NCBI GenBank assembly: GCA_038222225.1
Contig: JBBRHV010000007.1
Location: 27-64,026 of the forward strand
Direction of reading: 5' to 3'
Origin: Candidatus Omnitrophota bacterium
GTDB lineage: Bacteria > Omnitrophota > Gorgyraeia > Zapsychrales > JANLHA01
Length of the DNA: 64,000 nt
A program made the position numbers and the translations under genes. Below the pieces are notes generated by a model. It was not told the DNA's origin and did no database searches. It saw only the letters and a list, made by a program, of their open reading frames with translations. Each line of letters begins with the position of its first letter. Position 1 is the first letter of the stretch. Below are positions 8,708 to 27,717 of the stretch, one piece after another.

Positions 8708-9460
8708 TCAGCCCTTACGCTTCATCTCCCAATACTTGGCATAACTGATAATCTGATAAAGAGAAGCGAAGTAAGCGGTCATAAATCCGAAAAAGCCGTC
8801 TTTATATCCCTTCTTCCCTATGTAAGTCCGGAAGAACCGGTCAATAGCGCGCCACAGATACTTTCCAAACGTTATTTTTCGGTTGGCCTTCACCATCTTT
8901 GTGGCTTCGAGAGTCGTTTGTCCGTTGAGTTTCTGCAGAAAATGTCCGAAATCGCGATAACTGTAATGGATCATGTCGCCTTTTAAACGTCCGGTCGTGC
9001 CTTCGGTGAATACCCGGGGATGCACCTCAACCTCTTCATAACGCAGGCGCCCTTTTTTAAAAAGCCGCAATTGCGCCGAAGGATACTGCCCGCCGTAACG
9101 CACCCAATATGCCCCAATAAAGTTACGCCGCGGAATGCTATACAGGTCATGCTCTGGATTTTTTAAAACCTCCGCTATTTCTTCCTTCACTTCCGGGGTC
9201 AAACGTTCATCCGCGTCCAAACTCAGAACCCAGGGCTGAGACGCTTTCGCGTAAGCCCAGTTGCGGTGAGTCCCCTCAACGTCCATGCGTTTTGAGTAAA
9301 CCTGATCCGTCAACTGCTGAACGATCTCAACGGTCTTGTCTGTGCTCAGATCATCGACCACAATGATTTCAGCCGCCCACCCGGACACGCTGTCTAAACA
9401 TTCCTGAATACGATCCTGCTCATTTTTTGTGATCACGATCACTGATACCGGTACGGTCAT
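8708..9460 (-). CDS. Family-2 glycosyltransferase (LPS core/O-chain type).
   Basis: The N-terminus VSVIVITKNEQDRIQECLDSV and the DxD motif (LSLDADE) are present. It is the last gene of the minus-strand glycan operon. Confidence 0.8.
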   Translation of the reverse strand: MTVPVSVIVITKNEQDRIQECLDSVSGWAAEIIVVDDLSTDKTVEIVQQLTDQVYSKRMDVEGTHRNWAYAKASQPWVLSLDADERLTPEVKEEIAEVLKNPEHDLYSIPRRNFIGAYWVRYGGQYPSAQLRLFKKGRLRYEEVEVHPRVFTEGTTGRLKGDMIHYSYRDFGHFLQKLNGQTTLEATKMVKANRKITFGKYLWRAIDRFFRTYIGKKGYKDGFFGFMTAYFASLYQIISYAKYWEMKRKG

Positions 9461-9481
9461 AAGAAGTCCTCGTAGAAATGG

Positions 9482-10585
9482 TTATCCTAGAATTTTTTTC
9501 AATATCTCCGCCACCGCTTTGACCTGCTCCCGACTCATATGCGGGAACATGGGCAGAGAAATGATCTCTGATGCGATTTTTTCAGCGATCGGAAAATCGC
9601 CTTTGACGTGCCCGGCGTCCTGATAGGCCGGCTGCAAATGAACCGGAATCGGATAATGGATCAACGAACCTACTTTCTGTTCGTTGAGATTTTCAAGAAC
9701 GCGGTCCCGGTCAGAAACCCGCACCACATACAAATGATACACGTGGGTGCGGTCGTTCTCCGCTTGAGGCAAACGAAGGCCGGAGACACCATTGAGTTCT
9801 TCCTGATACCATGCGGCCACCTGCTGACGCATCTGATTCCACTGATCGAGGCGCTTCAATTTCGCGGACAGCACCACCGCCTGAAGCGTATCCAGACGCG
9901 TGTTATACCCTTTAACAATATGCTCATAGCGCCCTTTGCGGCCGTAATCGCGCAGCATCATCACTTTCTCATAAACATCTTTCTTCGAGGTGATCACCAT
10001 GCCGCCGTCACCAAAAGCCCCCAAATTCTTGGTCGGATAAAAACTGAAACAGGCAATATCCCCCAAAGCCCCGACACGCTTGCCCTTATAAAAAGCTCCG
10101 TGTGCCTGAGCGGCATCCTCGATCACGCAAATGCCGTGCTGATGCGCGATGGAAACAATTTTTTCCATATTCGCCGGCTGTCCGTAAATATGGACCGGCA
10201 GAATGGCCTTGGTCTTATCCGTGATCGCCCGCTCAAAAGACCGCGGGTCAATATTAAACGTGCTTTCTTCGCTGTCGACAAACACCGGCGTGGCCCCGGT
10301 ATAGGAAATACAAAGCGCGGTGGCAATAAACGTGTGTGTCGGCAAGATCACTTCATCGCCCGGCCCGATATCCAGCGCCGATAACGCCAGATAAAGCGCG
10401 TCGGTTCCGGAATTCACTCCCACCCCGTACTGTGACTGACAAAAACGCGCGAACTCCGCCTCAAAATCTTTTTCTTCCTGCCCGAGAATAAAAGCGCCCC
10501 GTTCAGAAACTTTTCGAAAACCGCTGAACACTTCTTCCTGGATCTCTTGATACTGAAAACTTAAATCAACAAAAGGAACGCCCAT
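9482..10585 (-). CDS. DegT/DnrJ/EryC1-family PLP-dependent sugar aminotransferase (canonical Lys).
   Basis: The motif FSFYPTKNLGAFGDGG carries the PLP lysine. The fold-type I aminotransferase core is present. Confidence 0.85.
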   Translation of the reverse strand: MGVPFVDLSFQYQEIQEEVFSGFRKVSERGAFILGQEEKDFEAEFARFCQSQYGVGVNSGTDALYLALSALDIGPGDEVILPTHTFIATALCISYTGATPVFVDSEESTFNIDPRSFERAITDKTKAILPVHIYGQPANMEKIVSIAHQHGICVIEDAAQAHGAFYKGKRVGALGDIACFSFYPTKNLGAFGDGGMVITSKKDVYEKVMMLRDYGRKGRYEHIVKGYNTRLDTLQAVVLSAKLKRLDQWNQMRQQVAAWYQEELNGVSGLRLPQAENDRTHVYHLYVVRVSDRDRVLENLNEQKVGSLIHYPIPVHLQPAYQDAGHVKGDFPIAEKIASEIISLPMFPHMSREQVKAVAEILKKILG

Positions 10586-26783: not shown

Positions 26784-26784
26784 A

Positions 26785-27717
26785 TTATTTGACCTGCTGT
26801 TCTTGGTTAACCAGAATTTGAGCCCCGATAATACCGGCGTCATCACCCAGACGGGCGCGTACGATCCGGACCATGTTCCCCTGAACGGCCATGGCCCGCG
26901 CCTTAATGGCCCGTCGAACCGCCGGAAATAAAAATTGATGGCTGCGCGATACGCCGCCGCCGATCACAATATGTGTTGGATTCAGCAGATTGACCATGCC
27001 GATCAAGCCGGTCCCGATCAGCTCACCCGCTTCTTGCCAAAACCGCAGCGCCTGAGCATCCCCGGATTTCGCCAATCGAAAAACATCTTCCAGGGCTATG
27101 CCTTTACGTTTGAAGATCGCTTCGGCACGCTTTTGCAGCCGGGTGTTGCCGACAAACGTTTCAAAGCAGGCAAACGATCCGCAGTTGCATTTGGGCCCTT
27201 TGAAATTGATCGGCATATGACCGAGCTCACCGGCGGCAAACCCCGCACCCCGATACAGTTTCCCATCCAGGATGAGTCCGGCGCCGACACCTGTTCCCAA
27301 AGTCATCCCCACCATGTTGCGGCATCCATGCCCTGCGCCAAACCCCCACTCACCAAGAGTGATGAGATTGACATCATTCTCCAGGTACACCGGCAAACCT
27401 AAACACTTTTCCAGTTTTGCTTTTAAGGGAACATTACGCCAGCCCGGAATATTCGGAAGGAAAATAACGATACCGTCTTTGGGATTGATCAAACCCGGCA
27501 ACCCAATACCAACCCCTTGAACTTGTTTCTTAGAAATTCCGCTTTCTGAAATAAGCGTTAAGACCGCCTCAGCCAATACCTTGATCAGCCGCTGCTTATC
27601 AGAACCATAAGTTTTTGTGATTAAACGGGTTCGGTGAAAAACCGAGCCCTTTGGATCAATGAGACCGATCTTGATATTTGTCCCGCCAACATCCACGCCT
27701 ACGGTATATTTTTTCAT
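26785..27717 (-). CDS. ROK-family sugar kinase (glucokinase/N-acetylhexosamine kinase) with a zinc motif.
   Basis: VGVDVGGTNIK and the ROK motif GHMPINFKGPKCNCGSFACFE are present. Confidence 0.85.
   Translation of the reverse strand: MKKYTVGVDVGGTNIKIGLIDPKGSVFHRTRLITKTYGSDKQRLIKVLAEAVLTLISESGISKKQVQGVGIGLPGLINPKDGIVIFLPNIPGWRNVPLKAKLEKCLGLPVYLENDVNLITLGEWGFGAGHGCRNMVGMTLGTGVGAGLILDGKLYRGAGFAAGELGHMPINFKGPKCNCGSFACFETFVGNTRLQKRAEAIFKRKGIALEDVFRLAKSGDAQALRFWQEAGELIGTGLIGMVNLLNPTHIVIGGGVSRSHQFLFPAVRRAIKARAMAVQGNMVRIVRARLGDDAGIIGAQILVNQEQQVK

Follow-up and report, generated by a model that had tools for sequence, protein, structure and literature searches.

Nucleotide-sugar tailoring is well understood for hexoses, and for heptoses only in Campylobacter. 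The capsular heptose pathways of Campylobacter jejuni combine GDP-heptose activation genes (HddA/GmhA/GmhB/HddC) with the dehydrogenase Cj1427, a DegT-family protein of the 3-dehydratase type that uses pyridoxal or pyridoxamine phosphate (PLP or PMP), and an Fcl-like partner. The colitose pathway (Gmd, ColD and ColC) also runs on a GDP-sugar through a 4-keto intermediate, and it employs a PMP-dependent 3-dehydratase in which His replaces the PLP lysine (His-type) together with a partner of the Fcl family. In the pathways of YerE/ErwE (yersiniose, erwiniose), AviB1/B2 and Pau11/12 (eurekanate, paulomycose), a 3-dehydratase is followed by a thiamine diphosphate (ThDP) enzyme that acts on a 3-deoxy-4-keto nucleoside diphosphate (NDP)-sugar. 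A further point of comparison is provided by class-B radical S-adenosylmethionine (radical-SAM) enzymes of sugar metabolism such as AprD4, GenK, Fom3, OxsB and HpnJ. Here we describe a lipopolysaccharide (LPS) operon in a 64,000-nucleotide stretch of a Candidatus Omnitrophota genome (contig JBBRHV010000007.1 of assembly GCA_038222225.1, positions 27 to 64,026; hereafter the window), in which an embedded eight-gene cassette carries enzymes related to all of these systems.

We hold with moderate confidence that the cassette converts GDP-heptose into an LPS sugar by way of C4 oxidation, C3 deoxygenation, ThDP-dependent carboligation and a radical-SAM step. The steps up to a 3-deoxy-4-ketone are likely, judging by homology to characterised enzymes and by gene context. 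Co-occurrence shows that the ThDP and radical-SAM steps are part of the pathway; what they do chemically we infer. The product is very probably a deoxy, carbon-extended sugar, made from a seven-carbon sugar nucleotide, that has not yet been described. Each enzyme type is known individually; the novelty lies in how they are combined, in the substrate class and in the distribution, and no earlier report joins oxidation of the Cj1427 type, deoxygenation of the ColD type, carboligation by ThDP and a B12-domain radical-SAM step, as predicted here. Full-text literature, in which most subscription journals are not covered, yielded no account of a cobalamin-type radical-SAM or ThDP step in any heptose pathway, and nothing on Omnitrophota LPS sugars or on a phage-borne cassette. 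What the product proves to be could bear on how carbocyclic or higher-carbon LPS sugars are made.

The cassette departs from each of its described relatives. The natural partner that precedes the 3-dehydratase in C. jejuni is a 4,6-dehydratase, cupin epimerases are used there and neither a ThDP nor a radical-SAM step occurs; in the system described here, the Fcl-like protein is non-catalytic. The colitose pathway operates on a 6-deoxyhexose rather than a heptose and obtains its 4-keto group with a 4,6-dehydratase rather than a dehydrogenase; the cassette DegT protein is nearer to perosamine synthase than to ColD, and the cassette adds the ThDP and radical-SAM enzymes. ThDP-branching pathways use CDP- or TDP-linked hexoses or pentoses, and all of them lack both a B12-domain radical-SAM enzyme and an oxidase of the Cj1427 type. 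Within this group AviB1/B2 share the E1alpha/beta architecture, a likeness drawn from their description, and single chains of the YerE type occupy the same slot in some phage copies of the cassette. The radical-SAM protein shares domain architecture, the CxxxCxxC motif and a sugar context with the named class-B enzymes, but it belongs to a separate, very large and uncharacterised family, with all family scores far below cut-off.

Composition and spread of the cassette

An original prediction, made from the sequence of the window, had described a glycan operon of about 19 kb. We find 17 open reading frames (ORFs) on the minus strand that fill positions 8708-27717, and Pfam and NCBIfam profile matches recover every one of its domain calls. 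The block is a chromosomal Omnitrophota LPS operon of composite make-up, in which ordinary LPS genes surround the cassette (12484-21043). The latter consists, in order, of a ThDP enzyme pair, an Fcl-like protein, a short-chain dehydrogenase/reductase (SDR1), the radical-SAM enzyme, a GHMP kinase, a nucleotidyltransferase and a His-type DegT protein (DegT_B).

All 17 proteins were compared with 80 related loci (numbered with the prefix L) by local tblastn and blastp. Partner counts were taken over the 40 bacterial loci with enough flanking sequence around the radical-SAM gene. The GHMP kinase, DegT_B and a ThDP enzyme each accompany this gene in 39 of the 40 loci, SDR1 and the nucleotidyltransferase in 38 and the Fcl-like protein in 33. 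Homologues of the radical-SAM protein at 65-80% identity occur in ~70 species-level genomes that carry the label Candidatus Omnitrophota or, wrongly, Planctomycetales. That some 70 Omnitrophota genomes keep the cassette adjoining lptD, at 65-75% identity, suggests an LPS sugar typical of the phylum and not an O-antigen that varies.

Beyond this phylum, a rearranged module is present in contigs labelled Elusimicrobia, Betaproteobacteria, Methylococcaceae, SAR116 and Eubacteriales. The full cassette is carried by plasmid pDMC1 of the cultured bacterium Solidesulfovibrio magneticus RS-1 (NC_012797.1, ~22.5-39.7 kb; L164:10164-25395, L166:4495-6364), where it is flanked by two family 2 glycosyltransferases (GT2), a NUDIX protein, a GT-C (PMT/ArnT-like) transferase, an L-2-hydroxyglutarate oxidase and a GmhA-like SIS protein. 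A complete copy in a cultured organism makes both the product and the function of the radical-SAM family directly testable. Among IMG/VR viral contigs, 143 stretches were matched, each encoding a relative. In the viral comparison set of 82 loci (80 of the 143 stretches and two further loci), T4-type gp23, uvsY or uvsW lies beside the cassette in 44; the T4-like phages that carry it come from lakes and oceans. The INPHARED collection of isolate phages contained no homologue at E <= 1e-20. The cassette is a widespread, self-contained and horizontally mobile module that is also present in phages.

The mobile versions vary in make-up. In the T4-like phages, cassettes sit between uvsW and gp47/gp46-like genes (for example L081:9340-17258; also L082-L084, L088, L094, L099, L104, L113-L115, L117, L137, L140 and L151) and encode a 217-aa protein, the radical-SAM enzyme, a DJ-1/PfpI protein, a ThDP pair or YerE-type enzyme, a GHMP kinase, a His-type DegT protein and a Cj1427-like SDR. 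A protein of 217-254 aa without a Pfam match is encoded directly upstream of the radical-SAM gene in phage and proteobacterial versions (L081:9340-9993, L065:9339-10004, L069:9270-10001, L074:8481-9245) and is absent from the Omnitrophota version; the versions that carry it often have no recognisable nucleotidyltransferase. Partial cassettes are found on Azospirillum plasmids, AZO_p6 of A. lipoferum 4B (L163) and p5 of A. argentinense Az39 (L165), with radical-SAM proteins at ~41% identity. One of the two has Fcl, kinase and NUDIX genes, the other a split transketolase, an SDR and a kinase amid transposases.

Predicted route to a 3-deoxy-4-keto-heptose

SDR1 aligns with the protein of PDB entry 6VO6 at 58% identity over 308 residues without gaps, in a match that spans the TNS...YxxxK active-site region. 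The 6VO6 sequence shares 96% identity with the representative of a C. jejuni cluster of 313-aa proteins whose gene neighbours encode a cupin epimerase, a 345-aa Fcl-like reductase, a GHMP kinase, a SIS isomerase, a nucleotidyltransferase and a capsule-export protein. This neighbourhood of the Cj1430-Cj1423 type identifies 6VO6 as Cj1427, to which identity is 58-65%. Cj1427 oxidises C4 of GDP-heptose, and its tightly bound NADH is regenerated by reduction of 2-oxoglutarate to L-2-hydroxyglutarate (PMC10680097). A gene for L-2-hydroxyglutarate oxidase (lhgO) lies beside the cassette in RS-1, L069 and L056, and we propose that SDR1 may recycle NADH through 2-oxoglutarate as Cj1427 does. SDR1 had previously been listed as an intact SDR; that call stands, refined to a close homologue of the C4-dehydrogenase Cj1427. 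The 3,6-dideoxy sugar put forward with it is unsupported because the block lacks a 4,6-dehydratase: SDR1 is Cj1427-like, with TNS where dehydratases have T(D/S)E, and the second SDR (SDR2) is a UDP-xylose synthase (UXS).

The GHMP kinase has heptose-7-phosphate kinases as its nearest characterised relatives. In 22 related loci, L001 and L002 included, gmhB adjoins the module, and the RS-1 cluster ends in a SIS protein with 37% identity to E. coli GmhA. Together with the homology of SDR1 to Cj1427 and the position of lhgO, these relationships support the GDP-heptose origin that the original prediction had advanced.

DegT_B also fits its earlier description as a DegT paralogue with His for the PLP lysine. 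Its FSLYAAH-IITSIEGG aligns with FSFFGNK-IITTGEGG of GDP-perosamine synthase, placing His at the position of the Schiff-base Lys. The substitution is present in 60/60 bacterial and 42/42 viral-contig homologues (102/102), some of them only 27-31% identical. Among characterised enzymes the Lys-to-His change is confined to 3-dehydratases (ColD, E1 and the C. jejuni HS:5 enzyme), and the proposal that this protein deoxygenates C3 is thereby supported. The nearest structures act on GDP-sugars, namely perosamine synthase (4e-64, 220 bits) and ColD (3e-48, 167 bits), with E1 dehydratase at 156 bits. Since DegT_B is nearer to perosamine synthase than to ColD, it may represent a separate, independent His-bearing lineage. 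Raushel and co-workers have combined Cj1427 with the HS:5 3-dehydratase in vitro to produce GDP-D-glycero-3-deoxy-4-keto-heptose, a pairing presented as a route to novel sugars (PMC10680097). The cassette appears to be a natural counterpart of it.

In the proposed sequence of reactions, the HddA-like kinase would phosphorylate C1 of D-glycero-D-manno-heptose 7-phosphate, and GmhB, encoded elsewhere in the genome, would remove the C7 phosphate. With the sugar activated as GDP-heptose, SDR1 would oxidise C4 in the manner of Cj1427 with 2-oxoglutarate as oxidant. In a reaction like that of ColD, dependent on PMP and glutamate, DegT_B would then take off the hydroxyl at C3, giving GDP-3-deoxy-4-keto-heptose.

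The Fcl-like protein falls within this part of the cassette. It matches GDP-fucose synthases, and it matches 7ANC and 7ANH at ~3e-40; these are the C. jejuni heptose C4-reductases MlghC and DdahC (PMC7949155). Relative to E. coli GMER, with its Ser107-Tyr136-Lys140 catalytic triad (PMC7949155), the window protein carries S107D, C109D, Y136S, K140Q and H179G, and the Gly-rich NADP loop is gone (GHQEAKE). The suggestion that this homologue is catalytically degenerate is accordingly borne out at the loop and at all five catalytic residues. About 44 Omnitrophota sequences keep Cys109, Tyr136, Lys140 and His179 but have G-D-E in place of the NADP-loop glycines; those from outside the phylum have a normal Gly loop and S/C/Y/K/H, in the likeness of GMER and ColC. 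The catalytic residues are lost only in the window, L001 and L002, in all of which the ORF is open. Against L001 the gene has the highest dN of the operon (0.27) and a dN/dS of ~0.13, a rough value given saturated dS. It seemingly behaves as a retained pseudoenzyme rather than a decaying gene, and we propose that in this sub-lineage it acts as a conserved non-catalytic partner. The same sub-lineage has replaced a small ThDP pair with full-length E1alpha/beta and acquired a polysaccharide deacetylase.

The ThDP and radical-SAM steps

The ThDP enzyme of the window consists of two subunits of the pyruvate dehydrogenase (PDH) E1 type. E1alpha scores 301 bits on TIGR03182 (cut-off 394) and matches human PDH E1alpha at 4e-45. 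The ThDP-binding PP and Pyr domains are intact across the pair (E1_dh, Transket_pyr and Transketolase_C, with the GDG...NN motif in E1alpha). Neither the block nor the related cassettes contain E2 or E3 genes. The RS-1 orthologues are 42% (E1alpha) and 55% (E1beta) identical.

Full-length PDH-type E1alpha/beta is restricted to the window, L001, L002, L056, L059 and RS-1. Most Omnitrophota (~38 loci, e.g., L041:6833-8017) instead encode a mini pair made up of a 207-210-aa PP subunit (E1_dh) and a 178-aa Pyr subunit (Transket_pyr). The copies in Proteobacteria and in many phages encode paired subunits of 273-291 and 300-309 aa, and other phage copies a single-chain YerE/AHAS-type enzyme of 611-649 aa with TPP_enzyme_N, M and C domains. 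The radical-SAM gene has 6 kb or more on either side in 69 bacterial and viral loci, and a ThDP enzyme is present in 68 of them, in these four non-orthologous forms. Repeated non-orthologous replacement at one slot shows that the pathway cannot dispense with ThDP chemistry. The radical-SAM and ThDP genes had been placed in a single pathway, a view to be refuted if they proved unlinked; 68 of the 69 loci keep both together, and this ground for refutation clearly falls away.

YerE and ErwE are characterised examples of ThDP enzymes that add an acyl anion to the ketone at C4 of a 3-deoxy-4-keto NDP-sugar (PMC9306805), and AviB1/B2 and Pau11/12 are proposed examples of C4 branching by enzymes of the E1alpha/beta type (PMC4753412). 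By analogy, E1alpha/beta most likely carboligates an acyl anion derived from a 2-oxoacid onto the 4-keto NDP-sugar. The acyl group would most simply be acetyl from pyruvate and the likeliest site C4, as with YerE and AviB1/B2.

Some further features of this slot are worth recording. The mini ThDP pair lacks the C-terminal half of E1alpha and the C-terminal domain of E1beta, an unusually small ThDP architecture. Some viral versions (L126:11511-12449 and L126:15304-16500) place a PanB-like ketopantoate hydroxymethyltransferase between the radical-SAM and YerE-type genes, which hints at a modified 2-oxoacid donor, and have a second radical-SAM gene, of the SPASM type, in the vicinity. A phosphonate pathway, which would combine a split ThDP decarboxylase, a B12 radical-SAM enzyme and a nucleotidyltransferase, was considered and rejected: the small ThDP subunits match E1_dh/Transket_pyr rather than Ppd/ComDE, and phosphoenolpyruvate mutase is absent.

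The radical-SAM enzyme, the signature protein of the cassette, has an N-terminal B12-binding domain and the CxxxCxxC motif CPMKCSFC. It reaches none of the NCBIfam class-B subfamilies (HpnJ 152 bits against a cut-off of 578, BchE 112 against 481, AprD4 95 against 500, PhpK 89 against 600), and its score on the ApyD model is likewise below that for HpnJ. The solved protein nearest by sequence is AprD4 (7e-20), a 1,2-diol dehydratase, which also has the nearest solved fold to an AlphaFold2 model (pLDDT 85.6; TM 0.67-0.69); TsrM, MgmA, OxsB, CysS and TokK are next and close behind. AprD4 carries a B12-binding domain yet acts as a dehydratase. The family is very large, since a search with the L065 homologue brings up >7,800 database proteins at E <= 1e-50, and among the matches listed (the best 120 of the >7,800) none bears a functional name. 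A look-up of the window protein itself gave no record. We propose that this enzyme would carry out one more carbon-centred step (C-methylation, diol dehydration or C-C ring closure), after which the product would pass into LPS, perhaps by means of the adjacent family 9 glycosyltransferase (GT9).

Certain findings weigh against the route outlined above, and each bears on how its alternatives are judged. The GHMP kinase scores 154 bits on the NCBIfam HddA model (cut-off 600), and the nucleotidyltransferase 138 bits on HddC (cut-off 300) and 147 on mannose-1-phosphate guanylyltransferase (cut-off 440). With both proteins so far under the equivalog cut-offs, sugar and nucleotide are assigned provisionally. 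Moreover, tblastn at E < 1e-3 found no gmhA or gmhB match within the 64-kb window. The activated sugar could then be a hexose such as mannose, or another sugar; the slightly better score on the mannose-1-phosphate model and the presence of ManC next to the L065 version of the cassette agree with this, but the degree of identity of SDR1 to Cj1427, the heptose-7-phosphate kinase affinities of the GHMP kinase and the occurrence of gmhB, gmhA and lhgO in related cassettes make it very improbable. The overall proximity of DegT_B to perosamine synthase, an aminotransferase and its best PDB match, raises the further prospect that it still transfers an amino group and that the product is a 4-amino-4-deoxy-heptose analogous to perosamine. 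This too we regard as very improbable, given the invariant His in place of the Schiff-base Lys, the restriction of that change to 3-dehydratases among characterised enzymes, and the retention of Lys in 32/32 orthologues of the Lys-type paralogue (DegT_A) encoded by the same operon. E1alpha/beta stands near genuine PDH E1 (E1beta scores 313 bits on NF006667, cut-off 321), and the radical-SAM gene is set apart from the genes upstream by a gap of 194 nt, as would be expected if a housekeeping pyruvate or acetoin dehydrogenase E1 and an unrelated radical-SAM enzyme were merely adjacent to the sugar genes. The association of the two genes across phyla and phages in four non-orthologous forms, the lack of E2 and E3 genes and the lineage-specific nature of the insert that makes up the gap bring this explanation close to refuted. 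Degeneration of the cassette in this genome, with the product no longer made, would account for the loss of every catalytic residue from the Fcl-like protein, for an IS200-like transposase at the position where relatives have gmhB and for the additional insert in the SDR1/radical-SAM gap. We consider decay improbable, since the 16 genes shared with L001 are intact and under purifying selection, with dN/dS of 0.04-0.15 (0.13 for the Fcl-like gene) that are rough because dS is saturated, and GmhB can be encoded elsewhere in the genome.

The fold of the radical-SAM enzyme is likewise non-discriminating, such that methylation, diol dehydration and C-C bond formation all come into consideration. 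One alternative builds on the closeness to AprD4 in sequence and fold. The heptose would follow a colitose-like path of C4 oxidation, 3-dehydration as by ColD, and epimerisation and reduction by the Fcl-like protein; the radical-SAM enzyme would dehydrate the exocyclic C6-C7 diol as AprD4 does, and the ThDP enzyme would extend the new carbonyl by two carbons to give a chain-extended nonose in place of a sugar branched at C4. The intact Gly loop and S/C/Y/K/H of Fcl-like proteins outside Omnitrophota, which suggest that C4 may be reduced there in ColC fashion, and the direct adjacency of the radical-SAM and ThDP genes in proteobacterial and phage versions are in keeping with this course. On the other side, the fold is common to all class-B radical-SAM enzymes and TsrM and OxsB come close to AprD4 in TM, and YerE-type enzymes in the ThDP slot favour ketone branching. 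Further, the Fcl-like protein lacks its NADP loop in most Omnitrophota and is dead in the window, so that C4 would stay a ketone, the classical acceptor for ThDP enzymes. We regard extension of the side chain as unlikely, though it is the main rival, and continue to favour branching of the 4-ketone.

A more specific version of 4-ketone branching leads to a carbocyclic sugar of the caryose type. Caryose biosynthesis is stated to be unknown (PMC9092360). On paper retro-biosynthesis, the skeleton of caryose (4,8-cyclo-3,9-dideoxy-nonose) corresponds to a heptose with a 3-deoxy position, a two-carbon unit bound to C4 and a C7-C8 closure, features that match the four unusual enzyme types of the cassette and so suggest a caryose-like reading. 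After oxidation of GDP-heptose at C4 and deoxygenation at C3, the ThDP enzyme would attach an acetyl group to C4, with C8 and C9 derived from pyruvate; the radical-SAM enzyme would then join C7 to the C8 carbonyl to close a cyclopentane. We rate this proposal as a long shot; if true, it would explain how caryose-like sugars are made and imply a wide occurrence of this type of sugar in Omnitrophota LPS, with T4-like phages encoding it as well. An erwiniose-like octose built from heptose was rejected, as erwiniose is made from CDP-3,6-dideoxy-4-keto-glucose and a longer 2-oxoacid (PMC9306805).

The surrounding lipopolysaccharide operon

The genes of the operon are listed in Table 1. Three starts given by the ORF caller were judged too long, those of LptD, the second NDP-sugar dehydrogenase and, less certainly, E1alpha. 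After correction, all junctions measure -11 to +23 nt except for the single 194-nt gap between SDR1 and the radical-SAM gene, and purine-rich motifs resembling ribosome-binding sites precede most starts. Consensus scans returned 31 promoter-like sites (22 +/- 4 expected) and 22 terminator-like sites (25 +/- 4.5 expected), at or near background, and count neither for nor against the operon call. Rfam and tRNA scans of the window gave no matches.

Table 1. Genes of the operon, in order from the 5' end, and its one long intergenic gap.
Feature	Position	Strand	Best supporting match
ROK-family sugar kinase (first gene)	26785..27717	-	Pfam ROK 1.8e-77
LptD, outer-membrane LPS insertase	24672..26846 (start probably Met22, ~26783)	-	Pfam LptD 48 bits, LptD_N 35 bits
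UDP-glucose 6-dehydrogenase (Ugd)	23299..24648	-	TuaD model 565 bits (cut-off 700), TIGR03026 482 bits
Second NDP-sugar 6-dehydrogenase, WecC/WbpA/TviB-like	21975..23399 (start probably Met41, ~23279)	-	TIGR03026 432 bits
UDP-glucuronate decarboxylase / UDP-xylose synthase (SDR2, UXS)	21016..21966	-	phmmer 3e-112 to human UXS1 structures 4gll, 2b69
ThDP enzyme, PDH-E1alpha-type subunit (cassette)	20009..21043 (start maybe Met11)	-	Pfam E1_dh 6e-63
ThDP enzyme, E1beta-type subunit (cassette)	18933..19988	-	Pfam Transket_pyr + Transketolase_C
Fcl/GMER/MlghC-like putative pseudoenzyme (cassette)	17993..18928	-	1e-43 to GDP-fucose synthases
SDR1, homologue of Cj1427-type GDP-heptose C4-dehydrogenase (cassette)	17064..17996	-	PDB 6VO6 2e-120
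Only long intergenic gap, lineage-specific insert	16870..17063	.	Tandem arrays inside 12-nt inverted repeat
B12-binding-domain radical-SAM enzyme (cassette signature gene)	15358..16869	-	PF02310 49.5 bits, PF04055 68.7 bits
HddA-like GHMP sugar-phosphate kinase (cassette)	14370..15368	-	Nearest PDB WcbL (4usk/4usm), 3k85, 4n3o, 1e-35 to 1e-37
HddC/ManC-like sugar-1-phosphate (guanylyl)transferase (cassette)	13647..14369	-	NCBIfam models, all sub-cut-off
His-type DegT (DegT_B), predicted PMP-dependent C3-dehydratase (cassette)	12484..13650	-	Pfam DegT 1.6e-98
CE4 polysaccharide deacetylase, lineage-specific accessory	11680..12471	-	Pfam Polysacc_deac_1 6e-29; PgaB, IcaB-like NCBIfam matches
GT9 heptosyltransferase, RfaF-like	10601..11674	-	TIGR02195 154 bits (over 134.6 cut-off)
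Canonical Lys-type DegT aminotransferase (DegT_A)	9482..10585	-	Nearest structures QdtB 3.5e-118, DesV, WbpE
Small GT2 glycosyltransferase (last gene)	8708..9460	-	Pfam Glycos_transf_2 4e-21

L001, the closest relative, is collinear with window positions 26949-8715 at 76-80% nucleotide identity. The gap between SDR1 and the radical-SAM gene is ~45 nt in L001, and in other Omnitrophota the two genes overlap. In the window it holds two short tandem arrays, one of four 7-nt units (17002-17030) and one of four 10-nt units (16925-16965), bracketed by a 12-nt inverted repeat (16890-16901 / 17043-17054) that has no other copy in the window.

None of the ordinary LPS genes is part of the module conserved across phyla. 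The ROK kinase scores 214 bits on the NCBIfam model of the ROK glucokinase subfamily (cut-off 260), and no evidence ties it to the heptose pathway; the ROK-LptD order is kept in many Omnitrophota loci. LptD has a stretch resembling a signal peptide after Met22. Ugd and SDR2 presumably supply UDP-glucuronic acid and UDP-xylose. For the second dehydrogenase the top equivalog models are UDP-N-acetylmannosamine dehydrogenases, none of which reaches its cut-off, and the Pfam match starts at residue 56; it is probably of the type that forms a UDP-N-acetylhexosaminuronic acid. GT9 and GT2 are transferases of the core type, and GT9 comes after the His-type DegT gene in 25 of the 40 loci.

Amination and de-N-acetylation of the same sugar had also been proposed for this operon, and neither is upheld. 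DegT_A, which is nearest to 3-aminotransferases of dTDP- and UDP-sugars, is found in 25/40 loci, all of them Omnitrophota, and lies outside the cross-phylum cassette. The CE4 (carbohydrate esterase family 4) deacetylase is found in only 3/40 loci with enough flank and in 4 of the 80 related loci overall (carriers: the window, L001, L002 and L032), and its hydrophobic N-terminus, MRKSRSFLIAITLIAVGLGAF, resembles a membrane anchor or signal. This N-terminal anchor and the rarity of the gene suggest that CE4 most likely acts outside the cytoplasm, on an exported glycan rather than on a nucleotide sugar. The Arn (L-Ara4N) pathway, a possible reading of Ugd, the decarboxylase, DegT_A, GT2 and CE4 taken together, was likewise considered and set aside: the decarboxylase is of the UXS type and reaches only 94 bits on ArnA against a cut-off of 777, DegT_A resembles 3-aminotransferases, and the block contains no formyltransferase, ArnT or GT-C gene.

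Upstream of the ROK gene, beyond an AT-rich gap of 490 nt, lie two GGDEF genes, an ABC ATPase, accD, hrcA-grpE-dnaK-dnaJ and clpB, a setting in the core chromosome. A separate pair of GT2 and GT4 genes (43143-45408, plus strand) is found amid the housekeeping genes clpB, a TPR protein gene, hflX and miaA. Synteny with L001 stops downstream of the last GT2 gene, where the window has an IS200-like (Y1_Tnp) transposase ORF (7788-8525) immediately after the operon; L001, L002 and many other relatives have gmhB there. Farther on, a giant Tc-toxin/RHS-like gene with a broken frame occupies 2-7569 on the minus strand. It comprises an SpvB-domain ORF (6682-7569) and then, in another frame, an open stretch of at least 2,255 codons (2-6766) that encodes FG-GAP, TcdB_toxin_midN and RHS domains and many Fn3 repeats and runs off the start of the window. 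This gene is either a frameshifted pseudogene or the result of a sequencing error.

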